From Paramecium tetraurelia (lineage: Eukaryota), in assembly GCA_000165425.1 (NCBI GenBank), contig CT868028.1, forward strand, positions 1-64,000: 64,000 nucleotides of DNA. The letters run 5' to 3'. Each line of letters starts with the position of its first letter. Within the stretch, counting starts at the first letter, position 1. Below are positions 455 through 52,133 of the stretch, piece after piece. Below the pieces are notes generated by a model. The model was not told the DNA's origin, searched no databases, and saw only the letters and a list, made by a program, of their open reading frames with translations. The position numbers and the translations under genes are program-made.

Positions 455-2339
455 TCATAATTTTTTTTCTTTTTCCTGAAGTTCTTGTGGAATTGAATAG
501 ATAAGTTGTTTTAGTTCCTTTTATGTTTATTTAAACTCACATGTTAGATTAGAAATCTCTTGTTATAATTAGTTTTTGCTATTCTTGATATTCTAATTTT
601 GTTTCTTCATCTTTAATTTCTTGCTCACAATTTTATTGATATTAATCTTAAATATTTTGAGACATTATTATAAGAGATGTTTGGTTTGTTTTCTCATCTG
701 ACTCATTATTCTATTTATGAAAAATGGTTTGCTTAAAAGAGATTGGTTGTTTTTTATCAACATTTATTATAAAATCTGAGATCTATTTGATAACATCCAT
801 ACTTGTATTATTATTTTATATCAGAGTAGTCTTAAGAATTACTCCTTTGATGCTCTTTGTGATTTCATCTTCAGATGATTGCGATACTGAACTATCACTA
901 TTTTAATTAATTAGAATGCTCCAAATGCTTATTTTATTAGTTTTTGGCAATTTTTTTAACATTGTAAAAAGTCTCTCTTTAATTAAACTTGATCTTTATA
1001 ACTTGAGACAAAAAATAATAAAATGAATAGGATTTGTATTGATATAGTTTGAGTAAATCAATTCTAACTTTTCTGAATGGAGTATTGATAAGATAAAACG
1101 AATCATCCAATATCTATCCTTCCTTGAATTGATTTCTCTCTTTGTAATCTTTAATATCATACACCTTTTGTATCACAAATTATTTTAGTTCATCTTCATC
1201 ACTTAAAAGCAAAATAGCAATAAAATCTTCTTTATTTTTTATTTACATTTTACTGTTTTAAATCTACTATTTATTAGCTTCTATGTAAAACTATCTATTT
1301 ATTTTCATTCCTTTTAAATTTATTGAAAAATATAGATTTTTTCTAAAATTGGCAGAATGTTAGTGATCCTTTATATAGCCTAAGATTGATATTATTTTGA
1401 TTTATAAATAATTTTGAATTAATTCATTTATTACTCATTCAACATCTAAAGCATTTTTTTGAATTTTTCACATATTTAGTTACTAGTTCTTTTTGATCGA
1501 ATTAGAATAGCCAAAGATCACCCACATCATAGATCACGATTCTATTCTCATGGGCATGTTTATAATACTTTGCAATTACCACAATACCAAACCTTTTTAA
1601 ACCATTCTCGGATATACTTAGATTGTTAATAGATCTATTATTAATTTAATTAACTAAGCTAATAAATTGCATCGCTATATAATATAATTTGATTTTATTT
1701 GATATTTGTATCTGATATATCAATAATAGGTTTGGTTGAGATGAGTTCTTACATATTAATCTCAAATTAATTTTCTAAACTAAAGGATAGATATTCCTCA
1801 TAAAATTATTTCTTCAAATTATTTACTCTCTATTTTAATAATTTTGTCACTACAATACTGTAGTCTATAAATAAATTTGAGAGATTTAGGAATTGTATTT
1901 ATTTTTGTGAGAGCAAATTTCTTAAAAAATTCTAATAAAGTTGTTTTTATTAGATTCATGAATTTTATTAAATAAATATATTCCCTTCTGTTTATAATCT
2001 AAATTCTTATGAGAATTATTGATAAAAATGTATAAAAATTTTCTATCTCTTGCTTTAACTCTGAATTAAACGTTTTTAATATATAATAAACTTTCGATAA
2101 GATTGACTAATGATATTTTAAACAGAAGACAATCTATGATAATCTAAAATAAGTACTATGATAAAGTTAATAGTGAATAAAATGATTAAGTAATTACATT
2201 TTCATCTCTCACCTTAATCTATTTTCTCTTTTATTATCAATTTTTCAAATACAATCTCCTTATACTCTGTAGGCAATAGTTTAAATAAAGAATCCTTCTC
2301 AGAATTACAATCACCAATAAATATAATAAGATGCTACAT
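455..2339 (-). pseudogene. Disrupted paralog of the tandem pseudo-GTPase gene at 9083-10999
   Basis: Code-6 segments MQHLIIFIGDCNSEKDSLFKLL, SKVYYIL, KGIYLF, WYCGNC, IAILLLSDEDELK, FYLINTPF, QRSSLIKERLFTMLKKLP and a C-terminal coiled coil are collinear with the 9083-10999 protein; in-frame TGA at 2202-2204 and frame changes. Confidence 0.6.
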
Positions 2340-2592
2340 AATAAAAATACAAAGTAGAGAATCGAATTTATGATGATAATATGTTAGTAATTCTATTAAG
2401 AATAAATAATTAAAACAAATAATTTTATTTATTCGTATAAATATTGTACTTTCATTGATTGTTTCAATGAAATTGCAATTTTAAGAATCTGATTCTAATT
2501 ATAATTATACCCTAACATATCAATTACATCTGGCTTAAGTACTGCTATTTGGTCATTAAATAGAAAAATTAAATACTAATTAGAAGTTAGAA

Positions 2593-8500: not shown

Positions 8501-8704
8501 CTCTATGAGCATTGGTATTTTACTAGAAATTATTTTTACTCTGTCTTTAAGTTCTTGCTTTAAATTTAGTGAACCTCTTTGTAGAATCAATTAAAAGATA
8601 TCATTATGTGAAATTTTAACCTATTCTGTTGGTAATACTTTGGATGAGTAACAACATCCACCTCCTCTTAAGTTGATAATTAAATCTAATTCTTACACTA
8701 CCAT
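2593..8704 (-). CDS. Large NACHT-like (degenerate P-loop) / pentapeptide repeat / WD40 protein with N-terminal LRGG-GCC motif; apparent frameshifts (pseudogene or assembly error); spans the N gap at 6299-6325
   Basis: MVVQELDLIINLRGGGCCYSSK; ILIIYGEDCLGRITLAK (~5850); pentapeptide run LYGCSFYKVNLNNSQFQNINITNCDFVQCSLNNVKW (~5020-5140); many WD40 units, e.g. LIGHTDIVNEIAYSSNARQLVSVGKDKQVIYWDI. Confidence 0.75.
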
Positions 8705-9082
8705 AAATAATCTATAAATAACTCCATTGAGAATCCTTAAGATATAAATCCAATATTTTAACCAATATTTCGATTGCCTTTTAAATGTTATGGATTTGAA
8801 AATTTGTTTTCCATTTGATTATAACAATACTAGAAAAATTTAGTATTATTATTATTATAAAAAATTATTCTATTATTGAAAAGAGGATCAATTTAGGGTC
8901 TATGATTATAAATTATACAATTAACAAAATTAACTGACACATAGAAATTTTTCAAAAACTTTTGAGAATTAAAATGAGTAAAGTGATAATAAATAATTAT
9001 TAATTTAACTAAAATATATGTTATGCTTTGTATTATTATTACAAGTACTCAAATAGATTTTAAAATTTCATAAAACTCATTC

Positions 9083-10999
9083 TCATCTACATTTTGATTG
9101 CCTCAATTGCTAGATAATGGACTTATTTATTTCTTTTTCTTAAATTATATTTCTAAGTTTCTCTTTTTTTTGATTCAGAATCTTTTCCAATTTTTCTATT
9201 TCAAAATTTAACTCTTCAATTTAATTATCTTTATTCCTTTGTTAATTGTATAATTCTTCCAGTTTATCATTTTTAATTTGATCTGAAGCTTCTCTAAAAT
9301 TATTTAAAATTTTTTTATCTTCTTCAGCATTCTACTTTTCAAAAATAGTATCTTAAAATTGAAATTAGATTGCATTAGCGTTTGAAAAGCAATCTAAAAT
9401 CTAAGATTTAATTACAGTTTGATTGATTTGCCTCTTCAAAAAGACCATAGAATTGCATGATAATTTTTAGAATTCCTTTTTCAAATTTTGCTATTAATCG
9501 ACATCAGCATCACAAGAAGTCACAAAAATAAAGACTTACTATTTATTTAGATTTGGTAATTTTTTAAACATATCGAAGTATCTTGACTTCATGATTTCAG
9601 TTCTTTAATAATTTAAGAAAAAAACAAATATATGAATTGGATTTTTACTAAAATATGTTTTAAATGTATCTACTTCATTCAAATTAGTAATATCGAAGTC
9701 AAATAAAGGAGGATTATGAAATATATAAGTACAGTTGCGATCTTTGAGTTAACCATTAAAGAAGATTTTATTATCAATCTTAACATGTTGTTAATTCCTA
9801 TGTTCTATTAATATATTAAAGATATCACTTTTAATATCATCTTCATTAGCTAAAAATAGAACTGATATAGAATTCTCACATTTTAAGTTGTTATTTATCT
9901 TTATATTAACATTTATATCCATATTAATTTCTTTCAGAAGTTCAGTATCGTGTTTTTCATTACATTTTGGTTGGCTTTTGAATTCATCTGATAATTTCAA
10001 TAATATTTTCTATTCAAAATAATCTAAACTTTTTTAAATGATAAGCTAGAAGGAAATATATTTTAAAGAATTTTGGCATTATATACATTTATTACGAGTT
10101 CTATGGCTCTCAGGATTAGCAATTACAGTTTCAATTATGTTTTGAGAAATATGATATAAAGTGGAATTTACAAAATAGTACAATTGTAAACATTCTGAAC
10201 ATTAGTAAAAAGTGGATAAAATTAATCGATGTATAACTTTCATGATTTAATTAAATAGTTAATCTATTAAAAATTTAATTATGACTTTATATTCGAAGAT
10301 ACTGAATATTTTATCAAAATTGAATTAGAATGATTTCAGAATTTATTCTAATTGCATAGTTTAGAAGTACTTTGTTATAAACAAAGCCTAACTATTACCA
10401 ATAATTATAGCTCCTTTTAATTCCTTTTAAAGTGCATTAATTTAACAGTTAATTTCACTTTATTCATCAATCTTCAATTAACCAATACTATAAGTTCCTA
10501 AAATCACGTTATTTCTGCTTTAAATCAATTATTTAAATGTTGTTAAAAGATCTGTAATACCTAAGATTTAAAAGCAAATTGTATTTTTGTTTTTACAATT
10601 CATTTAATCATAAAGCTCCTTTGAATTTGTAAAAAAATAAATTCCACAATCGGAATAATTTGAATAAAATAGCAGTACCTTTAAATCAACTAAGATATCA
10701 GTAAATACTTAATGTTAATTAAGCAAAAAGTAAAAAACCTTTTCAATAATTAATTTGTGACATTAACAAATAGTAGCGATTAAACTCCATAACATTTTGT
10801 GATCTTCTTTTGTTTTTATTGGTGGAGTGTTCAATACATATTATTCTATTCCTTTAAAGGAATGAGATTGTTTTATTACTTAAGGGAAAGGATTGTAATT
10901 TTCTTCATTTTAAAACTATATGACTCCTGTTATTTAAGTATAGATCTAATTTTTTAGTGTTTCATCGTTACCTATCAAGATAAAAACCTTTTTCTACAT
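9083..10999 (-). CDS. Protein with two degenerate (pseudo) GTPase domains, CxxC..CxxC motif and C-terminal coiled coil
   Basis: MQKKVFILIGNDETLKNQIYTQITG and VLNTPP (degenerate G1/G3); CSEC..CIQC; second domain SVLFLANEDDIKSDIFN, HNPPLFD, FVTSCD; one probable intron near 10560-10600. Confidence 0.7.
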
Positions 11000-11319
11000 A
11001 TATTGAATTCATTTATAGTATAAATTAATTGCAATTAAACAACCTCATAATAGAANNNNNNNNNNNNNNNNNNNNNNNNNNNNNNNNNNNNNNNNNNNNN
11101 NNNNNNNNNNNNNNNNNNNNNNNNNNNNNNNNNNNNNNNNNNNNNNNNNNNNNNNNNNNNNNNNNNNNNNNNNNNNNNNNNNNNNNNNNNNNNNNNNNNN
11201 NNNNNAATAGCAATTAAACAACCTAATAATAGAATAACAAAACTTCTCAAACAAGCGTAATAGATTTTTCCTCAAATTTAAAAGGAAGGTGATAAATTAG
11301 AGTTAGTTTATAAAAAATT

Positions 11320-19110: not shown

Positions 19111-19323
19111 ATGGGTTTATTGTTCATATAAATCGATTCCATATTAGATAGAGACTCACAGAGAGCAGATTACATACTGAAGTAAAACGTCATTCCTTTT
19201 GAAGATACAATTCTATAGAAATACAACCACTCTTATAATTCCATTCTAAATCATTATGGAATATCAAAGTAGAAAAGTTCCTGTATCCTAACAATATGTT
19301 CTCTATTTATATTCGGAGAATGA
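19111..19323 (+). CDS. Small hypothetical protein (70 aa)
   Basis: ATG..TGA code-6 ORF filling the gap between genes; no recognisable motif. Confidence 0.3.
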
Positions 19324-19365
19324 TAAAGTGTTGAATTATTAAAATAATGTATATGAACTCTACTA

Positions 19366-20279
19366 TCATTTTAATGAATACAAATAATTTATGATATGTA
19401 CAGCTAAATCTTCAGGTACTTCCAAAGGAGGCATATGGCTTACATCTTGATGAACAACTAGTGTGCATTTGTTTTTACCTATAAAATGAATGTTAGTCTA
19501 AGCCTAATAACATTTATTACGTAAGCATCTGAAATAGGACATATACGGTCTAGTACACCGTGATATAAAAAGACAGGACCTTTGATTTTATTAACTTAAT
19601 TAGTAATATCAAATTTTTATAAAGCCCATGCTACATCGATATAATTAGATTGTTTGAATACGTCCTTAAGTAATTCTAATAATTCAAGATCACTTGGATA
19701 TCTCCCACTGTTGAACAATGCTTTCTTAAATACGTGATAGAAGTAATTGTAATCATTTTATTTCATTTTCATAACATTATGTTTGATTTTTGAATGATCC
19801 ATTACTTATTGTTTAGTTTAGCATTTAATTGATAATGATTTACCCTCTTAATCCTCCATATATAAGTGATTGCCATGACAACCTGCACTTGCTACAAGTA
19901 TTAATTTATGGTAGTATTCACTTTTATCACTTGCCAATTATAAACATACTGCCCCACCTAGAGACCATCCACATAAAATGACTTTTTAAGATATTTCTTC
20001 TTTTTTAAATAACGATAATATTAGATTATGAATTTCTGTAGTCAGATCCTTGATGTCGTCAACGCTATTATTTTGTAATTAGGAATATCCAAATCCTTTT
20101 TAGTCCAAATTAATAATTCTTATTTATTTATCTTGATCTCGCTTTTACATTTCTTGAATAAATTTGCCCCAATGTTGGGAAGAGGTGATGTTTCCATGGA
20201 CTAAGATCAATGCGTATGAATAGGGATAGCAATTATCTTTATGTGTGTCTGTATAATATAATTGTTAATTAATATTCAT
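19366..20279 (-). CDS. Alpha/beta hydrolase
   Basis: LILVHGNITSSQHW, GFGYS, GWSLGG nucleophile elbow, HGVLD, SHMPPLE. Confidence 0.9.
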
Positions 20280-20294
20280 ATATTAATAATAAGA

Positions 20295-21058
20295 ATGTTA
20301 TTAAGGGGAAGAGTTTTGGCTTATTTTGCAAAAGTGAAAGTAACAGACACCCCAAAAATAAGGATAGGAGAGGCGGTGAAATTAATAAGGGAGAGAGCAA
20401 AGGCAAAATTTGATGAGACAATAGATTTTTAATTAAGGTTGAATGTTGATCCAAAACATGGTGATTAAAATGTAAGAGGGACATGCATGTTACCAGGAGG
20501 ATTGGGAAAGAATGTATCTATAGCTGTCTTAACGACTAATGAATTAAATGATGTTGCATTGAGGGTAATTATTTAATTAATCAAAAGGCAGGAGCAGATT
20601 TCGTTGGTCAAGAAGACATATTGAAATCTATTAAGGATGGAACATATAAATTTGAAAAATTAATTACAACATAAGACATGTTGATTCATTTGAAACCCTA
20701 TGCAAGATTGTTGGGTACCAAGGGATTGATGCCAAATCCAAAGGCTGGCACTTTGGTATTACCATAGGAACTATCGTCAGCAATCAAGGGAGCGAAGGCA
20801 GGGTCGATTGAATTCAGAGTTGATTCAGGTTCGAATTTAATGGTGCCAGTTGGAAAGAAATCATTTGAAGATAAAGTGATATTGATGAATATCAAGGCTT
20901 TTTCACTAGCTTTGAACTAGAAAAGACCAACATCTTTGAAAGGACAGTTGATAGGAGAAGCAAGAATAAAGACGACTATGGGATAGCCAGTAGAAGTGGA
21001 CGTGTCCTCATTTGATTAAAGGAACAAAGAAAATGATTTGAAAGATTTGGTTTATTGA
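20295..21058 (+). CDS. MRPL1: Mitochondrial (bacterial-type) ribosomal protein uL1
   Basis: [51 protein letters not shown]; basic N-terminal presequence. Confidence 0.92.
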
Positions 21059-31209: not shown

Positions 31210-33970
31210 ATGTAAGATTAAGAAATTCTGAAAAATGAAAACAAACCTTTCATTCCTCAATAACCAAAACCAATTAATCGGACTGTTCTTCAATCATTAC
31301 TCCATGAGTATCATATTCTCATTAAAGGACTAAGAAACTAGTAAAATTATCACTATCCTCTAGAGAATATCAAGATTATTGCAATGTTAAAGGAGCTTGT
31401 GGATAAACTATTCCACTTATCCTCATTCTACCAATCAGTCTTGCTATAGGTACGTCTTAACTGATGTTGCTATTTTTTTAAAATATTCAAGACGGTATAT
31501 TTTGATACTATGTTGTTAAAAAGGACCTGTATTGCCTGCCTTGATTTAATTTCTTTTATTATAAGCTGCCCAAACTTTGATACTGTATATGATTCTTAAA
31601 GCCTGTGAAGTTATTCCCAAAAAAATTGAAAATCCTTTATTATTTGGCAGGATAACATCTTACATTTTCACCTGTTTAAGCATTGCTGAGGGAACATTAC
31701 TAATTGTATTCATATCAGTTTAATATTAAAAAGGAAAGAATAACAAATTTCAACGAATTGTCATAATCTTATTTTTGGACTATTATTGGATTAATAATTT
31801 GGTAAAAGGTAAATATTCATATTAATAAGATAATACAATTATTTATTTATGATTATAAACTTAGAATAGGCTTAATAATATTTTTGTATATCTATTATGT
31901 ATTTAGAGTTGATAGCGATTTATTCATTAGAGTAATTGTTTTGGCTATTTTTAGGATATAATAAAAGTAATAGCTTACATATTATTGGAAATTATTTTCA
32001 TTATCGATTCTGAATTAAAGAATTACTCTCAATATTAATTCGAAAATAATATGTAATTTAGAAATAACAAAGAAGAAGTTCAATTCATGATTCCATAAGT
32101 CCACATGCAGACACAACAATAGATTTTGGAATTAATTACTAATCAATTTCCCATCATTCTATTTGATTAGACTAAAGAATTAATTCATATCTCAGGAATA
32201 GGATTAAAATAATTGTAATTGGAAGAAGATTAAAACATCGATTTGATATCAGCAGAGGTCAAAATAAGAAAGATGGAGGTCTTAAAATTATTCTCAACAA
32301 ATTAATCTAACAAAGATAATTTAGTTTAATTGAAAAGATTGGCTAAATTTGGATCTACTTGTGGAACTAATGAAAAAGGAGAGTTATTGCATTCCCTTCT
32401 AAATGGACCAGCTCTTTAGCAGTTGCGTATATTGAGATAGCCACAAGAAAATCAAAGAGTCATTCATTACAATCCAGATGGTATTTTAGAGTAATTACTT
32501 AATAATTTAATAAATGAATAATAGACTGAATACAAAGGAATATCTAAATTTAATCTACCAAAAAATCAATGCAAATACTTTTAATTTACTTTAATTAAAG
32601 TACCCAAGGGAGATAACTTTTAGATTTTCTTAATTTTAGAAGATATAACTTAATTATATCAAGATATCAATTTGAACTAGAAAAATGAAGATGATGACCT
32701 TCCAATTATGTGTCAAGAATTCAGATAAATGTTGTTCTGCTAATAATAATTTTAAATTCCTCTCAAATTGCTCAACATTGAAATCAAAAATACACTCAGG
32801 TGTTCCAAAACTTAATATTTACAAGAGGAATTATTTGATGCAGACAACTTAATTAAATAATTATAAGAAAAGTATCAGAACCAAATTAATCCTAATATTA
32901 AATTATAATTCTTAAATAACCTAAAATAACATACTGGGGAATTTAAAACAGATCAATTGAGATTAACATAAATTATGTAAATTCTACTGGATAATAGCAT
33001 TAAAAATACTAAAGAAGGATTTATAAAGATAATTATTGAAGATGATTTTAGATAGAATTGTATCTAAATAGTAGTTGAAGATACTGGTAAAGGAATTAAT
33101 TTGGATATCTTCTAAGAAGAATTTAATGTTAATTCAATCCGATCCTTGCAAATAGTTAATTACATAACTAAGATTTTAGGTCCTGTATTTCAATGCAAGA
33201 AAATAACAGGCCAGCTTGCTAATAAAGGATTAAGAATTAAGTCCTTACAGGATTGTGGTACAAGAATATCTTTTTCAATCAGAAATCTAGCTTTAGATGA
33301 GTTTAGTACTCAGTTCATAATAGATGAAGAAATAACTCAAGACGAAATGGACGTTGATGTTGAAGAGAATGAAATCATGGAGAGGTACATAAGAGATGAT
33401 GATCAAATATAACATTTATAAAGACTTAATAAAGGATTGAGATCATTAATTATTAATAGATAATAAACTCAAAAGATTGCTAAGCCAATAGATATCAACA
33501 CTAACAAAAAATAAACTAAATTAGTTGGCATGATGAAACTATAGGAGTTGGGGAGATTCAAGAATATTTAAAAATAGAATGAATCTTGTTAATGTAGTTA
33601 CAAATTAATTATCAATTCAAATTAAGAATTTGAAAGAGTCATCAAATAACATACATAGGACAATGTTTCATTTATTAATGAACAAGATTCATACAAACAT
33701 ATTAGTTTAAGATTAAGAGATAAAGTTTGTTAGAATAATTCTTGTTAATATTTTAAAAATATCATTGTCAATTGTCACAACACTAATTTCAATTATAGAG
33801 AGTAATTATTATTCATTATATTTAGATTAATAACAAAGATTCTTGGAATCAATAATAATTTTAAAATTATTATTTTAATATATAATTCCTATGGGGAAAT
33901 GGACACATTAGGAAATTGCTTCATGATGCCAATTCAATTGGATATGTTACTATAATACTTATAAAGTTGA
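31210..33970 (+). CDS. Hybrid histidine-kinase-like membrane protein with degenerate H-box and receiver; start uncertain (alternative ATG 31589)
   Basis: N-terminal TMs; FKTDQLRLTQIMQILLDNSIKNT (N box), VEDTGKGI (G1), GTRISF; C-terminal receiver-like remnant. Confidence 0.75.
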
Positions 33971-37573: not shown

Positions 37574-39065
37574 TCAAACTTACCAATTATGCAACATTAT
37601 CTTTTATAAGGACAACAAAGCGTGTTCTCTGATCTATTAATCATCATTTCTAGCTTATCTCATAATCTCTTGTTTTGCATTCAATTACTCTAACACTCTA
37701 TACTCACATAATTTACTTACACTTTTCCAAAAGGATGGAATCTGCAAAACTCTCCCAAATCATAACAAGCCACTGCCACATTTTGATTGTTATTTGATTT
37801 TAGAATTTCTGCCAATTTTCTAATCTCAAAATTTATTTAATACCTAATCAATAAGAAATCATTCTCTTCAAACTTCTTCACATTCTCCTTCCAAAACTTT
37901 TCAGTGTGAACTGGACTCCATGTTAGATTTTAAGCATTCAATTCCTTAACATATTTCTCAAAAGATCTATGCATAGAGTATTAATATACGTTAATATTTT
38001 CATATTCTTCTCTAATATTTCTCCAACATACTTGATATCATCTATCAAATCTTAATCTTTTAAATTTCCCTTCAAAAGTAAATCAACCACTTTGATCAAT
38101 CCGTTATCAACCATTAATTCTATACTTTAAGGTGACACATCAACTAAATTCCTAAAACAGGCAAAGGAAACTCTTAAGATCTTCTCTCTTGATATCTTCT
38201 ACACTGATTCTATTATCAATCTGATCAACCCAACAGTGGGATCACTAAATAATGGAATAGATTCAGTTGTAAAACTGAGCAACCATAAAGCTAAAATTGT
38301 ATAATATGCAATCTATAAATCTGTTGAATACTTTGATAATAAATTCGATATTCTAAAATGAACAAACATAAATACATCCTAATTCCTCCACTCTTAATAA
38401 ATTGGATCGCAAGAGCTTCATGTTTCAAGAAATGAACACAAATTGGCATGATCATAAAATCTGCAATTTTTAATTTATTTCCTTTAATGGTGATATTATA
38501 TAGTGATTACCTATTCCTCCTAAGAAGAGTATCACCCATTCCTTTGCATCATTTCCTCCTTCTTCAGCTATTATCATGGTAGCAATCTTGGCAGCTGCCT
38601 CATATGCCATTGGATCATATCCATCAAGGAATAAGAATTGCTTTAACTTAGGTAATACTTGGGGAGTCAAGGCTCTCATGAATTGTTTAAATAATCTCTG
38701 ATTGTCTATTTGAATTATTTGTGAGACATACCTGAGATGATTGCCTCAATTGTGGTCAGAATATAAGACATCAAAGGCTTATCATGAATAAGGTTTTCTA
38801 TGATATCCAAAACCATTGAAAAGACTCCAACAGAATCAGTTTCCAAGAGTTTCTTCTGTTCTTACAACTAAATAATTTGATTCATCTATTCTACCTTTCC
38901 TTAAGTGAATTTAATGAACATATCTTTGGTCTCTCTCTTGATTGATTTGCCATGTTGATCCAATTACTTAAAGCAATCTTCGCAATCCTTCATCACTTTG
39001 CTTAGGTACTATTCCCTTTAATAAAAAGTTATGGATTGGCAAAAATATCTCCTTTGTCTGAACAT
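37574..39065 (-). CDS. ATP6V1H: V-type ATPase V1 subunit H
   Basis: REKILRVSFACFRNL, WSPVHTEKFWKEN, VACYDLGEFCRFHP, ALLSLQKIMLHNW. Confidence 0.95.
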
Positions 39066-39086
39066 ATTAATTTATTTTATATATAT

Positions 39087-40188
39087 TCAATATGATCCAT
39101 TAGGTAAATATATCGATTGTGTTTAATTGATTTGTCCAGGTCTCTAGAATGGTTGGGTGTACACTGAGTTATAAATGTTATATTGTTGACTCTATTTCAT
39201 CTAATATCTGGAGTAGAAGTCTAAATTGTTGTTGATTTCATTCTCGAAATGAGATAGCACCTCCTTTAAATCGTTGAATCTTGGTCTGATTTCCACTTCT
39301 GATACCATCTGGTAAATTAAATTAGTAAAAAGTGTTGAATAGCCTCTCTGTTATTAATTGATCATTGGCTTTGATGACTTTATCTACATAAACTTCCTTT
39401 TTAACCCAATCATAATACTATTCAGAGGAACTAAGGCTAGCCAATTCCAACAGGGTTAATCCTAGAGCAAACACATCGCCCTTGATTAAATCTACGTTTG
39501 GCGATGAATTATTTGCTCTCAATTCTTTCAGTAATTCAGGAGAGAGATATTGAAATTCATTCAATAACAATGCCTTCTAATATCCAGTCATACTCCCATA
39601 GATGAAATTGTACTCCTAAAATTTATAGTTATATAAATACCGTTAATTTCACACTTTGATCAGGATGCAAATAGATGTTTTTAGATTTAATTTCACCATG
39701 ATGTCTACCGTTCTTTTCCAAAAATGTGCAAGCATTGACAATTTAAAGTGTTATTTACCATAATCTGGATTCTGGAAATTGCGAGGTAGTATTATTGTAA
39801 TTTTTAGACAAATAATTCGTTTTCATTTCATTTTAGATGTTATTGTAAAAGAATTCTCCAATCACTGTTAACTAAGTTTGATCCTAACATAAGATTTGAC
39901 TATGTTATTCAGAGATGAAAAATATTTATGTAAGATGGTCATTGTTGTAGCATTTCCTATTTTTGTAATGAGCTAACATAAGTTTGGCTTCCTCTGATGT
40001 TGTGGGAGTCTTATGAAATTCAAAAATAGAATAATTCTAGTCAATCGTAGATCAATTACATTATCATCTTTGAGAGTGTGTACTCTGATCATACCCAACT
40101 AGTGATGATGAATCGACTCCTTCAACTTGAATTTCTTCATCACATTCTCGTACTTCTCTTCTTACAATTTTTAATTTGAATTCCCCAT
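39087..40188 (-). CDS. Protein-kinase-fold protein, probable pseudokinase
   Basis: MGNSNQK start; HHGEIKSKNI (HRD equivalent), QEYNF at the DFG position, YLSPE, GDVFALG, RPRF. Confidence 0.82.
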
Positions 40189-40213
40189 TAAATTTATAAT
40201 TATTAAATTATAC

Positions 40214-43200
40214 TCAATTCATGGTAAGAATTACCACAACCCATGAACAACCTTTGAGTTACACATTGATTTAAGATTCCCGATTAACAAATTACACATA
40301 CGAGGATATCGGAGCATTCATCAATTCGTACAGTTCGAGTTCATCTTTAGGTAGCATCTAAGACAGATATATGACTTTAGCTCCTTATTAAATGCTGATA
40401 ATCTAGGTATTAAATCGATTTTCTAGTTTTCTTATAATACCAGATAGAGGTTCCATATATTTACAGATCTTCAATTAATGTTTAGACCATATAGTGATCT
40501 CCATGCCATTCGCCAAAGTTTTCTAAATTATCAACATTCATTTACCTTTTCAACTTCTCCAGGTTCGCTTTGCATGAGAAATGGAATAGCCAAATTCAAG
40601 AAGGTGTTCCTATAATTATGTCCCTTCTACAATATTTTAATTAATTCCAACGTCTACAATCCTGCAATACAGGAAGTAGTGGTAGCCATGGCTGGGATAA
40701 TCTATGAGATATATAAACTAATAATACTCTGCCTGCTTTTAATTTGGTCCACATCCAGTCCACTTATTGTATACCATAATTAAGAGCTCTTCCATTTGTA
40801 GCAGAAGTGATGAAGGACACATGATGATTCAAATCATCATCTTTTTCGAACTACTAAGGTTATGGCAAACTAGGCTCAATTTATTTCAACAAATTCCTTG
40901 CTTCATCTAGTAATTGATTGTAATTCTTGACTTCCTCTTCTTATTCAATTTAATTATTTTATTACTTCTCTGCTAAATCTTATATCTTATTCTTCTTCAA
41001 TTATTATTTGCTAAGTACCTCCACATTTATCTTAGTTAAATCATATTATTAAGGTATCTGTATTCCATAGATTTGAGCTGTGAGAATAGCAAAGTATTCA
41101 ACAAATTTATAAGCAAAGGCCCCTTGAAATTCAATTACTTATGGGGCTCTTTTTGGGGGTGACCAAAACAACTTGCCTTCTTTATTCACTGAATCTAAAG
41201 GATATGCATTGAGTAGGGCCTGAATATCAAAAACAAATAATTTCTAAAATTTCTATCTTCCTAATTCCAGACACTACTAAAATGATTTAGGGTATTTTTT
41301 GAGAATTCTTAATGCTAAATCTACAGTTTATTGTTATGGAGATGCTTCTTACATCAATTAAACTAGGGCAGTCGGTTTGCGATAGAAATACTATTCAAAC
41401 TTATCTCTAGCCCATTCTAAACAGTGGATATTATTTTCTGGAAACATCCTCAAGGTGCAGTAAGGAATATCATTATTCTATTCAGGATCCTATTTACTTG
41501 CATAACTTTCAGTTAGATTAGGAATGATTGTTTATACATGACCCTTTGTTCCTAATGTACCACTCTCAATTAAACAAATATCATTTTCAACACATTTAGA
41601 ATCTATATATAATCTTGCTTGAACATTATCTAATGCATTAGTTACGCAATTCATTTATTTATAAAATTGATTATGATATATATCTTAAGTCTCTTAACAG
41701 ACCTTATCCAATCTAGCAATAATTTTGATATCAGGATTCATCGATTTTACAACTGCAGCAGCTGTCAAACTTTTAGGTTTTCTGATATGCTTTTCTCTAA
41801 ACAAGAACTATCTACTAAGATTTGAATTCTCAATTATATCTGGATCAGTCACATATATGGCACCATTCTTACCTACACCTAAAAGAGCATAGTTTTTTAG
41901 TAATTCACACCCTATTGCACCTGCTCCTACTACAAAGACATTTGATGAATGCAGGTTTTATACACCTCCAATAGTATTAATCAAGTCTTTGTACCTAGAA
42001 TTTGTATCTTTACCAATTCCATATTTTTATAGAAATTGTTGATATTCTTATTGAATGTTGTTTAGCTCTCTTAATTTAAAAGGCAACACATCCTCAAATG
42101 ATTAGACATATGCTTAATGAATTGGTGTGTATTTCTTATTTATTGCTTTCATGGCCTCTTAGGCTGCCATACCTCCAATAAATGCACACAATGGCTAGAA
42201 TTATGTATTAATTGATAATAATATCTAGAGAGGCATTAATTCATCCCTGTAATTGTTATATACATCTTCATTAAAGTGTTCATTGAGTCTTTCATCCACT
42301 TTTTAAGACAGAATTTCATTAATAAATAGTTTGATCTTATCCAGATTCCAATCATTATTTAATTAATCTGTGCTATTTAAACAAAAATGAATCAAGGCTC
42401 GTTTAATCTCGCCTATTCTATCCAACATCCCCATATTCTCACAGAAGTAAGAGAATGAACTCAATACATTTTGAATCCTTTAGAATGATATTTTAACTAC
42501 TTGTTTTTATTGATAGGCAACTCCATGACTAATGTAATTACAAAATATTTTATCAGTAACCAACTCAAATGAATTTCTTTTTACATTTCTAATTTAAAAT
42601 TTCTAATTATATGATTCTTGTTATCCTTCTTATTATTTTACTTCTTAAATTAAGACAACGTCATTTTCATTTAAATTATGATTTTGATTCTTAAATAAAG
42701 TGACTACATTATTCTAGATACTTTCAATCAGAACTTCTGACAATTGTTCACCATCTTTATCTATGATATTGAATTCATTCCCAAAGTCTGTTACTATCCT
42801 AGCAAACACATTTCTAGTCTATGCCAAGATGACTGCCACTTTATTTTACTTAGATATTTCAGTTGATAATTTAGGATCTTGAGTTATAAATACTTAAATC
42901 TCATCCAAATTAAGTTCTTAGATACTATTTTAGAGTACATCAATTTTAACATAAGGATTCAAGTACTTTAACTTATTTAAGACTTTTGCATCTTTGCGTT
43001 GATCAATATCTTCCTGATTTAAATAGAAATTGGTTCCTAAATCAGACAATTCAACCAAAGTAGGATCATATATAATCAATCTCTTCACACCAGACAACAC
43101 GATATTCTTGGCTATTTCTAATCCCAATCCATTCAGTCCATGAATGAAAATAGTGGATTCACTTTACTTTTTAACTGCATCCAATCCAACCACTCCTATA

Positions 43201-46200
43201 TATCTACTCATCAAATTCTGTAGGTTCTAATCATTTGAGTCAAATTGTCTTTGCTGCAAAGCATCTTCATAGCTAATATCAATCTCATTCATATCTAATC
43301 CCTAAGGCATTTACATATTATTTATTTCGTCCTATTCCATCTAATCAAATTAATTTTAATTAATTGTTATTGCCTTCTTCTTCTCATCAGTTATTGTGTA
43401 AAAATCAGCGCCAATATTGAATTTTAACTTCTCTAATTCTACTTTCAATTCATCATAAACCTTGATCAATTCTTATTTGTACACACCAGGTGCTGAACCA
43501 TAGGAGCAATTATTTTAAGTATAACCATAAGTAGCAGGTAGATTAGCCTATTCGATCCAAGATTCAATTTCTTTCTTTATCAAATCCTTCCTCAAATAGA
43601 AACTCTTCTGAATGACTTCCTCAAATCCCTTTGGAGGTTTCTGTAGTTATTCAATCATTGCATATTTGATGTTTTAAACCTTAACAAAGTTGCAGTAACC
43701 TCTATTAGCCTATTCTCCATTTGAAGTACCCATTTATGACTCCCAACCAGGTTCATTAAACATGACATTCTCCCACATAACCATTGATTACACTGAGATT
43801 AAAATCTATAAGATCGTAGAAAAGTTAACTATCCAACTGTCCCCCCAAGTTCCCAAGAGACTCAGACATACCTTTCCACAATTATAGAGATTTGGATTAA
43901 ACCTCACTTTCCCATGTCCAGTTGTAGATAGTTTCATTTTTGGAGGTCTTTATGGATAGTCCTCCCCAAAATACATATCATACAGAAATGCACCATGAGC
44001 ATATGGAGTACCACTTGAACCAAAGATTATGGTTCTCATGCAATCCATTCTGTCCTAATCGTATCTTAAGAATATAGAATTGCTTGATTCCATGGGGAGG
44101 TTCTCTTCAATGCCTGAAATTTCTGATATCAGCTTTTACATTTTAATCTAATTTGGGTTGTTAGTATTTTAATAGTACTCTTTCATCACACTCAAATATT
44201 CTGGATCACTCTTGATTTCACATTTACCAACTGCCAATCTCTTCATAAATGGCCTATAAAATTAATGCATACTGATTTATTCTTAGTTTTGGTTTTGCTA
44301 ATCTTAACTTAAATATTATATAGTAATCATATTTGAGGCATACAAACAAGATTCAACATAATCGTATATTTCCATGAATTCGTTTAATTCTTCTACTTTA
44401 GAGTTGAATGTTTTAATAAACATGATTGCCCATTGATTGAAAGTTTCCAATTACCTAAACAGACTCTAGTTATCGTTTATCAAAAATAACTTTAAAGTAG
44501 TCTTACACTTGGCCAAATTCTCTACTATTTTCAGAATTTCATTAAATACTTTGGAACCTTCTAATTAAGTTATATTTATGGTTTAAAAGTACTTGATTAG
44601 AAAATTCAGAATGTGTGATTGTTATAAACATTAAATGACTGCAGAATCTTTATAATCCTAATCAAGCAATATTCGTAAACAACTCATCAGGGCTTCTAGG
44701 TTGATCTCTTATTAGCTTTACTAAATTTCAATTTGTTTCCTGGGAACATATTGTGATTATTATTATGATTATTATTATTCCTATTGAAGTTTAGAGGCAT
44801 CAAATATTTAATTCTTATAACTGATATCGCCATAGCCAATTCCTTTAGGCTTTCCCTTTTGAATTTCCTATTATTTTGGATTGGCTGTCTTCTTCGGTTC
44901 AAGTTTGAATTAGAATTGGGATTGGACATTTCGATTCAATAGATTTAAGTAAGAGTCAATTCTATTCACAATCCTAATCTAGACTTTGGTTGTAAACAAT
45001 GCTTTCTCTTTCAAATTCGGATTTTAATCCAATATGAGTGCCAATGATTAATACATCAATTCAATCACTTTATTGTATGCATCTCTGCCCTCCTTCTTAT
45101 CATTCAGAAATGCCACTGCTAATAAAAATTACAAGAACCCATCAGTTTGAATGATAGAGTAATAAAATCCATCAATTTCAGACAGGAAATGCAATTCAAT
45201 AAACAATTGCTTATAGACCTAATCTGCTTTAACTACATACAAATGCTTATTGATTTATTCCAAAATCTTCTCAATTCCGCCAATGTATGTTTAAAAGTAA
45301 CTCAAGAGAGGCTTTTATGATTAGGTCTTCAAATGAAGCTATAAGATGGGCTTATTAACTATAATGTCATTGATTTCATTCTCCTTTAATGCTTCTATAT
45401 TGATCTTTTCTTTCAACTATGTTGATAATTCTTGGACACTCAGATTGTGTGGAATGAAGTGAATTGTTTAGAACCTGAATTATGAGAGATAGTAGTTTAA
45501 TTATTGGGTGTAACTTTTATGGTCTAGTAAGTCTTAGATGCCAGTTTGTGCTATCTAATCTTTGGATTCATCAAAAGTCCAGATTTCAATTTATATCAAG
45601 TAACAATCCTATTCCATCATGGAAGCTGTGATTTGATCAATCAACAGAATTCTTTATTAGATTTTCTCGAAGGGAAATCCAAATTTACACGATTGGAAAT
45701 CTACAAAATTGATGCAAGCAATAGGCTGATTGTGATGACCTATTTATAGCATACTCTATTGAATATCCAATATCACGTGAGGCTTTTTATCTAGGGAATT
45801 CACATACCAGAAATGGTCATCTTAAACCATCAATGCATAAAAGGATTGACTATTAGATTTAGCCTAAATGTAATTGTGTTGTCTCTTATCTTAAATGATA
45901 TTGTTAATAAAACAGACCAATCTCACATTTTCATTGCCTGCCATCAAATCAAAAATAAATAATACATTATTCCTGTTATCCAATTTATCAAATAAAATCT
46001 ATGAGTCTAAATGAGGATTGTATGGGTTGAATTGATGCAGATTCACCCATGATCCCTTGTTCATTTAAGGATTGATATTCTATTCTAATGACTATTAGTA
46101 TATCTATTACAATTCTCCTAATTCCTATTACATCTAGGGAATATTTGTTTTTAATTGATCTATAACAAGCTAATTAATCTTTTCGCATTATTTCTTGGTC

Positions 46201-47525
46201 AGTAATTCGGTCGTCAGTGATTAAGAAATTGAAATCGACTTCTTTTGTGAAAGCAGGAACTTTTCAACTTGTTGCTTGCTCTCCTAAACACTTAGTCTTG
46301 GATGAAAACAAACAGGGATCAATCTAACTTATTCGCTATTAAGAATTGGGAGGATAACTCTGTAGATGAAATCGAATTTCTACTTCTCTAATAGCAATGT
46401 GAAATCATCCTATAGAATTTCAATTAGAATCTTATCGACTTAATCTATACTCACAATCCTGACTATTAAATTTACCATAGCATCAATAATTAGAGGTTCT
46501 TTGGACCATTGGGGTTGATTCAGAGATCCGAATATGGGCTATGAGAACCTAATGGAATTGTAGAGAGTTCTGTGGAAATGGTTATTGAAGAAGGTGTGGA
46601 GTATGGTTTAATTGGTGGTGAAGGCAAGAAAGAAATGTAATAGATTTATCAATTAATGATTCAAATACTACGATTGTTTCTAATCTAGTAAACTAATACA
46701 ATAAGAGGATGGAGTACCTTTCAAATATGGATGCCAGAATCGTGATGATTTCTTTGTAGATGGAAATATTTTGTGTCTGTTAAGAGAAATATGATAATGC
46801 CAAAATGTCTAATTTGTTTGGTTTCTCAAATGAAGCATCAAACAACTCATCATTTATTCTGTTTACAATTAATGTCTAAAATACTCTGGGTGATGTAGCA
46901 CTTGTAAATGGTTGTGGGGGATTGATGGTGAACATCAGAAATCTCGGCAAATATGCCTGAATCTATTAGAGTTAATCGTCGTCCTTCAAGATGAGTTTCA
47001 ATATCAATAAAACTAACTGTTAGTCACTGTTAATTGCATAGCCTATCTTATGTGTAGAGTATCCAACATGTTAAGCTAATTAGGATTAGAATTATGAATA
47101 TGAGCCTATCTCCTAAATCTGGAAGAACAATTTCAGAATCCTGGATAATTGCATGACATAATCATTTGCGATTTCTAGTCTAGCATGAGAAAATACCTTA
47201 AGATGTAAAAGCCAATTAGAATAAGTTGGCACAATAATTGAACAATCTTGCCTACCTTTCAAAGAACATAGAGAAATCGGAAAGCAGGGAAACTTCTAAT
47301 TAAGGGATATTGTTCTCTTGTAATAATAATACGAACGCAGGATCATCTCTCGTATTGGGATCTACTATCTAAACATATTATTGAGTTTAAGTGGCTTCAC
47401 ATAGTAAAGAGTGATTTACTTGATTCTACTCTTTGCAAAGCAGGTTCTATGTCCTCCTCTTATTCCATTTGCTCTTCTTTGCCACAATAATACTCTTCAT
47501 AATCTTCGTATTCATCCTACGACAT
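40214..47525 (-). CDS. Giant fusion protein: helical N-terminal region + BIRC6-like UBC (E2) + complete UBA1-like ubiquitin-activating enzyme (E1)
   Basis: [42 protein letters not shown]1: [84 protein letters not shown]; no stop between the domains. Confidence 0.93.
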
Positions 47526-47692
47526 TATTTAATATCAATTATTATAAATATAACAAATTGTTTCACTCAAATTGAGTTTAAGGAATGTTGATTCTGAAAT
47601 TAGATGAGATACTACTGCTGTTCTGAATGAGAATGGAGATATCTTGATAACTATATTAAATCTCATTATATTGATATATAAAATATTAATTT

Positions 47693-48269
47693 ATGATCGA
47701 AGTATCTCATAAGAGTTTGCAATTCCAATAAGGTCTATTTAACCAATTGAGGTTCAAGATTAGAAATGTAAGTGATGTGCCCATAACATTCAGAATCAGA
47801 TGCAACAACAACACAAATTACAAATTAGACCATTACACGGGACTCATTCAAAGTAGATAAGATTTCGAGAATTGCATTCAAAATATCGTAGCTGCTGTAA
47901 GCTCACTTGATTTTACATTAGGATATCAAATTGTTTGGCGATTAATTGGAAATTCAATATGCAGAGTTGGCAGATCCTTAGGAAGATTTGAAGGAATTTT
48001 GGAAATCTAGAAAAAGTTTGGATCACGTCATCATTGCCATCGAAGTCTTGGATGTGTAGTAATAGTAGAAGGAGACTCTGTTGGCTGAATTATAGGCAAA
48101 GTCACAATCCTTACAAAAAGAATTATAAACTATCAAATAATAATATGCTTAGGCATAGAAATCTGCTGTTGATATCAATTACTTTAATTAGTTCTAAGAG
48201 GGATTTACTGTAGGCTAATTGATGCTTGTCATCGTAATAGGCCTGTTTTTCGGTGGTATTTTTAGATGA
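47693..48269 (+). CDS. MSP-domain tail-anchored protein (VAP-like)
   Basis: FKIRNVSDVPITFRIRC..YKL..YTGLI; coiled coil; C-terminal TM LMLVIVIGLFFGGIF. Confidence 0.75.
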
Positions 48270-48292
48270 ATTTATATTAAAATACATAAATA

Positions 48293-48731
48293 TCATGATT
48301 CTTCATAAATCTTATTAAACCTTTTAACCATAGGAGAAAATATAACTTATATTTTAGAAAATATATTGTATATTTTATCTGATGAGTTACGAAATGTCAG
48401 AATAGAAATTTCTATAGAACAATCTTCTCAGAACTATAAATCCAACCACCATAAGAAAAAAGAAGAACGATCCATATACTATTGCAATGCTATAGTTATG
48501 CTATTTAGTTAATCTACTCAAAAAGAAGTCACTTTTTTGCAATGTTGATTTTTATCCGGAATAGATTTAACTTGTTTTTTGAAATTATTAACTAGTGTTG
48601 ACTATAATTAATAGATATCAATGAGTACTGATGGGAGTGGCAACAGAATTGATTTATTCTTCTGCTTGTGCCAACATATTTCTGGTTTCAATAAAATGAT
48701 GTGTCAATTCTGTACTATTGCTTTTTTTCAT
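48293..48731 (-). CDS. SEC20: Sec20-like SNARE (3' end approximate)
   Basis: ELTHHFIETRNMLAQ..STLQKSDFFLSRL..IVYGSFFFFLMVVGFIVLRRL matches the Sec20/BNIP1 pattern. Confidence 0.6.
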
Positions 48732-48787
48732 TTGTATAATAATTATATAAATTATTATATATTGGAAAACAAACATTATGTGATTAT

Positions 48788-49941
48788 TCAAAATAGCTAA
48801 GGCACTTATTTGTTGATTAATGTTTATAAGTTATAAGCATTTTATTGCCGAATGGGTGACTTGCTGGGTTTGTTCACTCTAATCTTTGAACTTGGCTTGC
48901 TCATCTATTTAAATTCATTTTCAGATTGTCTTTGCTTCTCCAACTATTGTTCTTCTTAATATTATTATAAGGTCTGTTATTTTTTGATCAAAAACTTCTC
49001 TTACCTTTCTATCAAAGTGTCTGTGTTTTTGGAAGCCAATTCTAAGGATTTCTTGTTCAATTCAGGTTGGAATGGATACGATTCAATTGATTCTTCCTTA
49101 AAAGATTGGGTTCTAAAGTTATTGCAGAAATTCCGTTTCAGAAATTCATCAAACTAATTTTATGATAATACTTTGATTTCATGATCAGTTATTTCAGTCT
49201 AAGCTCTAGTTTACCTGTTTTCAAAGAGAGAGTATTATTCTCGTCGCTTTTTGACTCTTTCCTCAAATTCAGGAGGTAACTTGTTGATATTCAATTAATA
49301 TACTTCAGGTTGTGGTTATTTGCGTTCTTGCTAATGACATTATATGTACCATAATTATATAATCTGGAAAAGACTTCTTCATTTGGTTTAGTAGGTCTTT
49401 GATCATTTTGGACTTATTCATAAAACTTTTCAAATTGCTTTTCAAATAGGTATTTCTATTCTCTTTGCTAGCCATATTTAATCAATCTATCTTCAACTGG
49501 GTCATCAAACTGCATCATTTTGGACTTTTCATTTATGCTTGGTTAGAAACTGGAGTCGTTTTGCTATCTGCTTCCTTTTTTCTCAAAGTACTATTGAGCA
49601 TGATATTTCCAACCATCAATGGGTGATAGATAATTCTAAGGTAATTTTTATATTTAAGGTTATTATGACTTTTGTTACAGACTCATCTCATTTTAATACT
49701 GCTCCTAAAATCGTTTTTGATTAACTAGATTTTTCCATTTCATTGAGTAATCATAAAAGTCCTTAGTTACCTACTAAGGAGGTTCATCTTCGATTTCATT
49801 TACTTGATCAATCAACATTTATAATTATTTTTAGTAATCAACGTCTTTTTATTTCTACTATTTTTTTAGGGCATTTTAATAGAGCTTATCATGACATTGT
49901 AATTCTGGCCCATATTCAACATACATGAAATTTTTGAACAT
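48788..49941 (-). CDS. Hypothetical coiled-coil protein
   Basis: Code-6 ORF with FQPSINEKS / FQPELNKKS and VEDRLIKYG motifs. Confidence 0.7.
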
Positions 49942-50000: not shown

Positions 50001-51536
50001 TCACCAACTTCTTTCATCTTCGTTTAATTATTCCATAGTAAAATATCTATCTGATATTTGTGATATCTCATTGAATTATGGTATGTATGCAAGAGTATCA
50101 TATTTTTTCTAGGCCAAATCCTCCCAAGAAATGTCGTGAAACCAAGGATGACTTTGCAATTCCTTAAAATCCATGAGAAATCCCAATCGATGTGTACTAT
50201 CATGATTTATCAATTTTTAGATGATGTCCTTACATTATGATGAACAAACTATATTTCTGGGGAAATGCACTTCACCTTTGAGAATGAGCTTCAAGGCTAT
50301 GTCGAAATTGTTGTGATAGAATGGTGTTATGCCTACCAACAATTCATAAATTAGAATGCCCAAACTATACCAATCTGACATTCTAGTTAGTTCCCCATTC
50401 TTGATGTATTCTGGGGATGAATATTCAATAGTGAAATTGATGGCTTAAGTTTTCTTGAATTCCTAGTACATTCTCAATTTGCCATATCCGAAGTCAGTTA
50501 AACATACATACCCTCTTTCGTCAATCAAAATATTCTCAGGTTTCAAATCTCCAAATATTATTCCCCTCTCATGTAGATCTGACAAAGCTATTGCTACTTA
50601 TGCAACTATTTATTTTACTTATTATTCTTGGAAATTGTTGATCTCCTTCAAGTGTTAATAGAGGTCTCCTCCCTTCACCAATTTGAATATTAAATTTACA
50701 TTACCATTGTAGAGCAAACACAGCTCCAATTCCTCTATGAATGGCAATTTCTCATAATTCTTGAGAAACAGCTCCAACAAGTCGATGTCGACTGAATTGA
50801 TGGGAACACTTTTCAGCACTGAGAATTGTTATTATTTTTCGTATTTATTGTGCAATAAGTAGATCTTGCTCAAAGATCCTGAAGCTAAGACTACTGATTT
50901 CTAATACTCCTCTAATTTGACTCGCAATCTGAGTGGGTCATTGGCAAACAGCACCATCACTTCATTTGCAGTTCCCTTACTCTTATTCATAATATTGATA
51001 TAATTTAATTGGAAATTCTCAGGGTGCAATGTGCTAATTTAACATTTCGGATGCAAACTAGTTTACTTTGATTTATCAGGAGTTTGATGATGCATACAGT
51101 ATGGCTGTAAGACCTCATCTTCTACAAAATATATTCTGATGCTATCTATATTGTGCATTTTCAAGGCAATTGCTAAGTAAAATACTAATACATCTCTATT
51201 CTCTTATGATTTGTACAATAAATCAGATTCTGTAGGTACATGTATAATAAACTCTGGACTCTTTTTTGATATTGTGACTCCAAATATTTTGTTAATTGCT
51301 ATCTTTCTTTTAATTGATTTCTTGTCTATGTTATACACAAACTCATTAGATATTGCGATCATTCTCAACTATTCATTATTCCTCTTATTGATTTTCGTAA
51401 TCATTCGAGATATGAGCATCATTTCTAAGGATGTGCATTATTTCTTAAAATACTTTTCTGCATCCAAATGATAAACGTCATTTGTATCCACTTTTATTTA
51501 TTTCAAAATATTCATTTTCATATGTTCCTAATGCAT
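50001..51536 (-). CDS. AGC-family Ser/Thr kinase with N-terminal myosin-I TH1-like (PH) domain
   Basis: [63 protein letters not shown]. Confidence 0.88.
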
Positions 51537-52133
51537 TTCAATATATTATTAAAACTAATTATTTTATACAAATAAATAACACTAATTCAAATACATCATA
51601 ACAAATCATTAGATATATCAAGTGTTTAACTTTATATGTGATATTATCAATTATCATTTGATTATCTGTTTAATATTCCGAAAACTCAATTATTATTATT
51701 GATCAGAATAATAAATCATAAATTTTAATAACAAATTGTATACATTCTCTATTCCTAAATACTGCTATTAGATTAATTTCTCTACTTTAAGATTACTTAA
51801 TGATTCTTTCCAAATTCCTACTATTAATTACTAAGTCTAAATGAATGAAAAGCAAAAATAGCAAATGAATTGAGATGATTAAGTGAATCTTTAAATTATG
51901 TCTTTGTATATTTATGAAATGGCATTTCTGATATATAAAGAAAAATCATTCAGACTTGTCTTAGAATTTGATTTTCTTGTAAACTAAACTTTGATAGATT
52001 TTGATATATTCTGAAAATCATAAATACATATAAGGATTGTTATTCGTCTGTTCTATTTTGTTGGGAGTCTAAAATATACAACTATTGTTTTATTATAATT
52101 TTAATGCTCAATATAAAATAAATAATAAAATAA

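Follow-up and report, generated by a model that had tools for sequence, protein, structure and literature searches.

A BIRC6-type E2 domain joined to a ubiquitin E1 in Paramecium tetraurelia, a predicted self-charging ubiquitin writer

We analyzed a 64,000-nucleotide stretch of the Paramecium tetraurelia genome (GenBank assembly GCA_000165425.1, contig CT868028.1, positions 1 to 64,000 of the forward strand; hereafter, the window) and characterized a minus-strand gene (40214..47525) whose 2,396-residue product carries a BIRC6-type ubiquitin-conjugating (UBC, E2) domain followed on the same chain by a ubiquitin-activating enzyme (E1). In the textbook view, eukaryotic E1 and E2 are separate proteins that meet briefly; in this gene, two steps of the ubiquitin cascade that normally belong to separate proteins are placed on one chain. 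We consider it probable, at roughly 70%, that the gene encodes an expressed fusion of a BIRC6-like arm, a UBC, a linker and an E1, and that this fusion is a self-charging ubiquitin writer, as its domains predict.

One reading frame from UBC to E1

The coding region extends from an ATG at 47525-47523 to a TGA at 40216-40214 and comprises six exons. Using a word-index search, we found a public P. tetraurelia protein of 2,396 residues, P0002, that is 100% identical to the translation and maps exactly on 47525..40214. Its public names are only "unnamed protein product" and "UBC core domain-containing protein," which bears out the guess, made in a preliminary description of this DNA from its letters alone, that the protein exists as an automatic annotation only. 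Under translation table 6, the longest stop-to-stop frame (40596..46934, minus) spans 2,112 residues, while the second longest of the region 39000-49000, where 37 open reading frames reach at least 100 residues, spans 337. Most of the protein is encoded by exon 4 (40728..46692, minus; 5,965 nt), which takes in the region resembling the BIRC6 arm, then the UBC and the linker, and also the E1 as far as residue 2242. The 1,989 codons of its frame include no TGA, 103 TAA and 51 TAG (154 TAA or TAG codons read as glutamine). Because this frame is free of TGA, the junction between UBC and E1 requires neither a stop nor an intron; the exon 4 translation agrees in this with the preliminary description, which had proposed a single minus-strand frame in code 6 running from the UBC into the E1.

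To define the domains of P0002, we searched it against Pfam, which identified UQ_con (1.2e-17), E1_FCCH (1.7e-10), two ThiF stretches (5.8e-74) and UBA_E1_SCCH (2.8e-58), so that the UQ_con, ThiF and UBA_E1-type domains named in the preliminary description were all found in one protein. The UBC with its N-terminal extension (43545..44228, minus; amino acids [aa] 1076-1303) was delimited by UQ_con and by a phmmer search of the Protein Data Bank (PDB), and its catalytic Cys1196 is encoded at 43866..43868. It is followed by a 108-residue linker (43221..43544, minus; aa 1304-1411) that is partly acidic and of low complexity. The last ~30 residues of the linker are conserved across the family of fused proteins described below, with the consensus "IDVxY...DxND..VKDRWSRYIG" in a 36-sequence alignment of its members. 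The remainder of the protein (40217..43220, minus; aa 1412-2396) corresponds to a complete E1 with inactive and active adenylation domains, an FCCH domain (42504..42716, minus; aa 1580-1650), an SCCH domain (40743..41441, minus; aa 2005-2237) and a probable ubiquitin-fold domain (UFD). Two ThiF-type adenylation domains together with FCCH and SCCH in one chain are the hallmark of a canonical ubiquitin-type E1.

We scanned the E1 half for the motifs PxCTL, GxGxxGCE, NLxRQFLF and the ALDN aspartate, which define a canonical ubiquitin-type E1, and included UBA1 and UBA6 sequences as references for these definitions. P0002 contains NLSRQFLF at residue 1878, ALDNVQAR at 1940, the ATP-binding GAGAIGCE of the active adenylation domain at 1843 (41904..41927, minus) and PYCTLR at 1997, within which the catalytic Cys1999 is encoded at 41457..41459. 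Both catalytic cysteines are invariant in the 36-sequence alignment. Direct translation reproduced exactly the codon positions that had been given for the two cysteines, as well as the GAGAIGC and KGIGYG motifs. The UFD, which in canonical E1s serves to recruit the E2, is encoded by the last exon (40217..40522, minus) and is divergent: alignment with yeast Uba1 extends to residue 992 of 1024, yet the region falls below the Pfam E1_UFD model, which does detect the domain in the homologues P0077 and P0290 (28.5 bits). The earlier claim of a complete E1 therefore stands on Pfam for both adenylation domains, FCCH and SCCH and on the Uba1 alignment for the UFD, which lacks a Pfam match. We also predicted a complex of the UBC (aa 1100-1345) with the C-terminal half of the E1 (aa 1805-2396); run without a supplied alignment, it returned a score of 0.00 and no verdict, and is uninformative either way.

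BIRC6 affinity and the fused family

The UBC is best classed as BIRC6 type. In the phmmer search against the PDB, it matched BIRC6 (3ceg, 9qgw_A) at 195-199.5 bits, followed by UBE2O (~102-107 bits) and UBE2Z (92-96 bits), and the same ranking was obtained when the UBC region was searched alone. Residues 52-280 of 3ceg align to the UBC at 199.5 bits without a gap at the "insertion loop" of human BIRC6 (residues 4649-4653), opposite which lies GHGKV (43905..43919, minus; aa 1179-1183); the first residue, G1179, is invariant in the 36 fused proteins. Studies published between 2019 and 2026 showed that UBA6, and not UBA1, charges human BIRC6, one loop of its UBC being part of the reason. A 2026 paper (PMC13623948) showed that the insertion loop clashes with the gate helix of UBA1 and helps to restrict BIRC6 to UBA6.

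Upstream of the UBC lies the motif KGIGYG (44829..44846, minus; aa 870-875). Among 60 family members whose N-termini are long, 45 show the form KGxGY[GSA], placed 306-408 residues before the UBC motif. In P0243, a protein of the Picozoa type introduced below, the KGxGYG motif aligns with "KGTGFG" near residue 4290 of human BIRC6 (35 bits, E 7e-8), and the BIRC6 homology extends ~260 residues upstream of the UBC. The resemblance of KGIGYG and the UBC surroundings to the BIRC6 C terminus, noted in the preliminary description, is thus consistent with both the bit scores and the P0243 alignment.

We next modeled the upstream region with AlphaFold2 (aa 254-1075; 24-row alignment, mean pLDDT 68.3), which predicted a helical region of ARM-like character into which a beta domain is inserted (44325..46692, minus). 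Foldseek ranked BIRC6 as its three best matches (E 2.1e-4 to 8.3e-4), the first of them annotated "C-terminal arm of BIRC6." VIA-align placed BIRC6 in its eight best rows (Z 13.0-16.4, 297-415 residues, rmsd 8-10 A), collinear with human residues 3637-4502, which directly precede the BIRC6 UBC; the next family, unrelated armadillo proteins, followed at Z 12.5, and helical repeats often score high in such fold comparisons, as the tool itself warns. We therefore have moderate confidence that the predicted arm resembles the C-terminal arm of BIRC6. Inside it, a predicted beta-sandwich with a TLDc-like fold (45564..46064, minus; aa 464-630) matched the TLDc domains of TBC1D24, NCOA7, OXR2 and mEAK7 in VIA-align (Z 10.0-11.4, rmsd 3.0-3.3 A, 128-144 residues), with no Pfam TLD match at E 0.01.

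Neither a BIR domain nor the Pfam BIRC6 domain (PF12356) was found in 14 fused proteins scanned, P0002 among them, and the metazoan control P0292 carries both. Searched exhaustively with phmmer, the N-terminal 822 residues yielded just 12 matches at E <=0.001 among 1.84 billion representatives, mostly short fragments plus the paralogue P0008; in sequence, the N-terminal region is lineage-specific. The ~1,100-residue N-terminal region of the preliminary description is indeed present; the Foldseek and VIA-align results suggest that it is not an arbitrary sequence and resembles the BIRC6 C-terminal arm.

To survey the family, we used 120 listed relatives of near length, of which the best 99 are P0002-P0100; the remaining 21 are ordinary E1s. 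The UBC lies N-terminal of the E1 in all of the best 99, with ~50-100 residues between them, although three of these relatives are N-truncated and retain fragments of the UBC only. Orthologs that consistently split the two halves, an outcome the preliminary description had considered, were therefore not what we found. Matches to longer proteins comprised 14 giant fused forms (3,738-4,989 aa) and 5 animal BIRC6 proteins. The E1 motifs P.CTL[KR], ALDN..AR and GxGxxGCE are each kept in 99/99, and the UBC motif FNPNLY..GKVCLS in 96/99; the three misses are two N-truncated proteins and P0008. In the transcript assemblies P0017, P0038 and P0278, both halves are contained in one open reading frame.

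Judging from these matches, the fused family is large and spread across ciliates and at least one non-ciliate lineage. Members occur in several Paramecium species, including three or four models in P. tetraurelia (P0002, P0008 and P0068/P0288, the last two with nearly identical UBCs). The same architecture is present in other ciliates, namely Tetrahymena (P0011 and P0012, with T. malaccensis and T. utriculariae represented, and the 7,545-aa T. thermophila protein P0297, annotated "ubiquitin-activating enzyme E1"), Ichthyophthirius (annotated "UBA6, putative"), Pseudocohnilembus and, from a transcriptome, Platyophrya. Another member is labelled Picozoa sp. COSAG06, and its 90% cluster includes metagenome proteins of 4,621 and 5,319 aa. 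Proteins of this Picozoa type and two other giant forms (P0243, P0290, P0327) are poor in N/K/I/Y/F and rich in G/A/R/P, unlike their Paramecium and Tetrahymena relatives. N-terminal additions vary among members and include ZZ, CCCH, UBA with a RanBP zinc finger, ankyrin repeats and a weak DOC match. P0243 (4,621 aa), for example, carries ankyrin repeats and a weak APC10/DOC match of 20.7 bits (cut-off 21).

At the other extreme, dozens of "minimal" fused forms (P0013-P0035 and similar, from ENA and Logan) are 1,340-1,480 aa long and contain little beyond UBC and E1; many of the metagenome members are of this kind. Because such forms exist naturally, the pair of UBC and E1 looks like a selected unit. 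Some of these minimal proteins sit on contigs of 100-224 kb. An ESM Atlas search with the minimal fusion P0013 returned generic E1 clusters only, at 0.84, and no useful taxa.

Taken together with the catalytic sites, this architecture suggests how the protein may work. The E1 half would adenylate ubiquitin and take it up as a thioester on Cys1999; the ubiquitin would then be handed to Cys1196 of the attached UBC, either on the same chain or on a dimer partner. BIRC6 itself is a dimer. We predict self-charging as the likeliest mechanism, be it in cis or between the two chains of a dimer. By geometric reasoning, the linker should be long enough for the UBC to meet any face of the E1. The charged UBC could transfer ubiquitin directly to substrates bound by the N-terminal arm, in the manner of BIRC6 and without a separate E3. 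The fusion would in this way give a BIRC6-type E2 a dedicated E1 of its own, which fits the retention here of the BIRC6 loop, since in humans that loop excludes the general E1, UBA1.

Transcripts and alternative explanations

The gene is real and expressed. Two stranded oligo-dT RNA runs contributed 355 and 629 raw reads, covering 30/30 bins in each run, and the reads all pointed in one direction, as is expected for minus-strand RNA in most stranded libraries. Sites at which at least five molecules started were confined to 40311, 40647 and 41410, none near the linker, and in neither run did read starts or ends accumulate within the linker (near 43.2-43.5 kb). Five introns, all in minus-strand orientation with GT..AG borders, interrupt the gene: intron 1 (47395..47419, 25 nt), intron 2 (47175..47196, 22 nt), intron 3 (46693..46717, 25 nt), intron 4 (40702..40727, 26 nt), which lies within the E1 adenylation domain, and intron 5 (40523..40545, 23 nt), which directly precedes the UFD exon. 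All five are missing from the contigs of two older runs, X3 and X7, and for this reason these contigs look like cDNA. Each of the two runs produced one contig of ~40100-43221 and another of ~43194-47550. In X3, contig depth was 49.9 on one side of the junction and 49.8 on the other; the corresponding values in X7 were 17 and 13.4, depth being a poor measure by the tool's own warning.

We also noted a plus-strand T>A at 41491 in 4/9 reads of RNA run X22, which was present in 0/7 reads of X21 and in none of the contigs. The change falls on the second letter of the codon for Gln1988, which lies 11 residues N-terminal of the E1 cysteine, and may reflect either strain variation or an error.

Several observations weigh against a single self-charging chain. 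The X3 and X7 contigs overlap by just 28 nt (43194-43221), exactly at the onset of E1 homology, and no read or contig bridging the linker with at least 31 letters on each side was displayed by the RNA runs or by the X3 and X7 contigs. A 32-nt contig piece (43192-43223) splits the cDNA-like contigs, with a depth of 115 against ~50 in X3 and 48.5 against 13-17 in X7. This piece is plausibly a word common to the transcript of a paralogue, perhaps P0008, given that the P0008 protein is identical at that spot. The E1 half has the greater RNA depth, which rises toward the 3' end, a pattern which either oligo-dT bias or an extra E1-only transcript starting near Met1415 would cause. The UFD of P0002 is too divergent for its Pfam model. 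In addition, P0008 has RRVWLD in place of GKVCLS at its UBC site with the E1 site intact, and the annotated model of its P. octaurelia counterpart, P0122 (82% identity over the E1), is an E1 of 999 aa that begins at the methionine equivalent to Met1415. These two proteins suggest that the E1 half is able to survive where the E2 no longer works, and their sub-lineage seems to be losing E2 function. At the level of RNA, then, the continuous junction of the preliminary description is backed by one-strand coverage and by the lack of any cluster of starts or ends in the linker.

These points bear most directly on an alternative in which the fusion is real and its E1 half serves mainly as a general or additional E1, charging free E2s in trans, partly as an E1-only isoform from near Met1415, while the UBC and arm regulate or localize it. 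In its favor stand the excess of RNA over the E1 half, the dead UBC of P0008 and the E1-only model of P0122; the lack of a named stand-alone ciliate UBA1 among the 120 shorter E1s listed is a weak further point in the same direction. We nonetheless consider this explanation unlikely. The UBC active site is kept in 96 of the best 99 relatives, natural minimal forms consist almost solely of UBC and E1, and the transcripts show neither a cluster of read starts near 43.2-43.5 kb nor, in X3, a step in contig depth across the junction, poor a measure as depth is.

A second alternative, which we judge distinctly improbable, is that the module operates a private pathway for a ubiquitin-like modifier other than ubiquitin. 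Side branches of the E1 family do handle other modifiers, as UBA6 does with FAT10 and UBA7 with ISG15, and the E1 half studied here groups in a clade apart from both UBA1 and UBA6 (see below); however, its nearest solved relatives, UBA6 and Uba1, activate ubiquitin, and BIRC6 transfers ubiquitin. Finally, a gene-model artefact, in which adjoining E2 and E1 genes are run together, TAA and TAG being sense codons and TGA happening to be absent in between, is very unlikely: with TGA as the sole stop, long open frames do come more easily, and the cDNA-like contigs do break at the E1 boundary, but a frame of 1,989 codons without TGA stands against a next-longest nearby frame of 337 residues, the domain order recurs in 99/99 relatives, some of the family (P0243, P0290, P0327) lack the AT-rich, Q-rich composition seen in Paramecium and Tetrahymena, single-transcript assemblies join both halves, the linker end is conserved, and RNA coverage is unbroken on one strand.

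Elsewhere in the window, neighboring open reading frames looked ordinary. They include a protein kinase with a myosin TH1-like stretch (50001-51605, minus), an alpha/beta hydrolase (19251-20783, minus), a WD40 protein (2237-3580, minus) and an HATPase_c protein (31913-33970, plus). The GC content of the first 18 kb of the window is 0.21-0.26, compared with ~0.30 beyond, and 177 N letters marking assembly gaps fall within this low-GC part, at 6299-11205.

Placement of the E1 half and comparison with known systems

Searched against the PDB with phmmer, the E1 half (aa 1412-2376) matched human UBA6 at 516.6 bits, yeast Uba1 at 510, human UBA1 at 461 and UBA7 at 351. We then built an unrooted E1 tree (58 rows, 968 columns, LG+G4, with SH-aLRT as its only support measure), which resolved three clans. 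The first contains all 23 fused rows and three E1-only rows (SH-aLRT 100). The second contains UBA6 of animals (4 named rows and 2 others; SH-aLRT 99), and the third UBA1 of animals, fungi, Willaertia, red algae and Entamoeba (26 rows; SH-aLRT 100), both without any fused row. Of the E1-only rows in the fused clan, P0134 is only part of a fused protein 4,599 aa long and P0122 has been described above; P0123 is probably truncated, as it adjoins a fused protein in the tree. On this placement, the fused E1s form a clade that is neither UBA1 nor UBA6, and a sister relation to UBA6 is compatible with the unrooted tree. Residues near LD.K..G..FW..PKRPP are common to fused E1s and UBA6, with no polarity in an unrooted tree of three clans. 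The "UBA1-like E1" of the preliminary description is accordingly a complete E1 of the UBA1/UBA6 family, but one that groups in a clade of its own beside both.

In a tree of the UBC domains, 29 fused rows stood apart from the 4 rows of animal BIRC6. A number of subgroups with good support are identical in the UBC and E1 trees, while the Picozoa-type row is placed differently. A single old fusion would fit these data, since the subgroups recur in both trees. We further raise, tentatively and as a somewhat doubtful proposition, that animal UBA6 and the clade of fused E1s share a single ancestor, an ancient second ubiquitin E1 whose line has served BIRC6-type E2s exclusively from the early evolution of eukaryotes onward. 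The fusion in ciliates and Picozoa might then be a "Rosetta stone" record of that partnership, a self-charging writer independent of UBA1, and E1-to-E2 transfer within one chain would be directly testable if this were true.

Whether or not that history holds, a fusion kept across ciliates and beyond provides independent evolutionary evidence that BIRC6-type E2s need an E1 of their own. It also offers a single-chain system for trapping the hand-over from E1 to E2, for which the minimal forms of 1,340-1,480 aa look especially suitable, and it indicates that ubiquitin signalling in ciliates has an unexplored branch. P. tetraurelia itself has three or more loci of this kind, and at one of them the E2 site is dead. 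The design of a BIRC6-type E2 joined to an E1 is apparently both conserved and unstudied. Literature searches for E1-E2 fusions in ubiquitin-like conjugation turned up only bacterial systems such as Cap2, and older domain-architecture surveys may mention a eukaryotic fusion. No eukaryotic E2-E1 or BIRC6-E1 fusion was found in these searches or in passages of PMC12999496, PMC12355090, PMC11354881, PMC4327156 and PMC13623948, and the accessible parts of the UBA6-BIRC6 structure papers mention neither ciliates nor a natural fusion.

Among known systems, UBE2O and UBE2Z, which are large or UBA6-linked E2s from the same UBC superfamily, share the UBC fold and are the next-best solved matches to the Paramecium UBC (92-107 bits), but neither is fused to an E1. 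Cap2, encoded in bacterial CBASS operons, likewise joins an E2-like to an E1-like domain in a single chain, and there too the E2 comes first. Cap2 is a small enzyme that has one adenylation domain, forms a homodimer and acts on a cGAS-like protein. The Paramecium fusion, in contrast, is encoded by a spliced eukaryotic gene, and its E1 is canonical, with adenylation domains arranged as a pseudo-dimer and with FCCH, SCCH and UFD; there is no sign that the fusion itself shares descent with Cap2. Canonical UBA1 has the same set of domains and the same catalytic motifs as the fused E1s, which nevertheless fall in a separate clan (SH-aLRT 100).

The closest parallel is the human pair of UBA6, a dedicated E1, and BIRC6, an E2/E3 hybrid (solved complexes include 9qgw and 9xgb). 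The Paramecium protein resembles this pair in its BIRC6-type UBC, which keeps the residues aligned with the insertion loop, in its predicted BIRC6-like arm with the KGxGYG motif, and in its full E1 of the UBA1/UBA6 family, which scores marginally best with UBA6 (516.6 bits, against 510 for yeast Uba1). Compared with BIRC6, the Paramecium fusion is half the size and is without the BIR and Pfam BIRC6 domains. Compared with the pair as a whole, it carries both enzymes on one polypeptide, and its E1 half lies outside the metazoan UBA6 clan.

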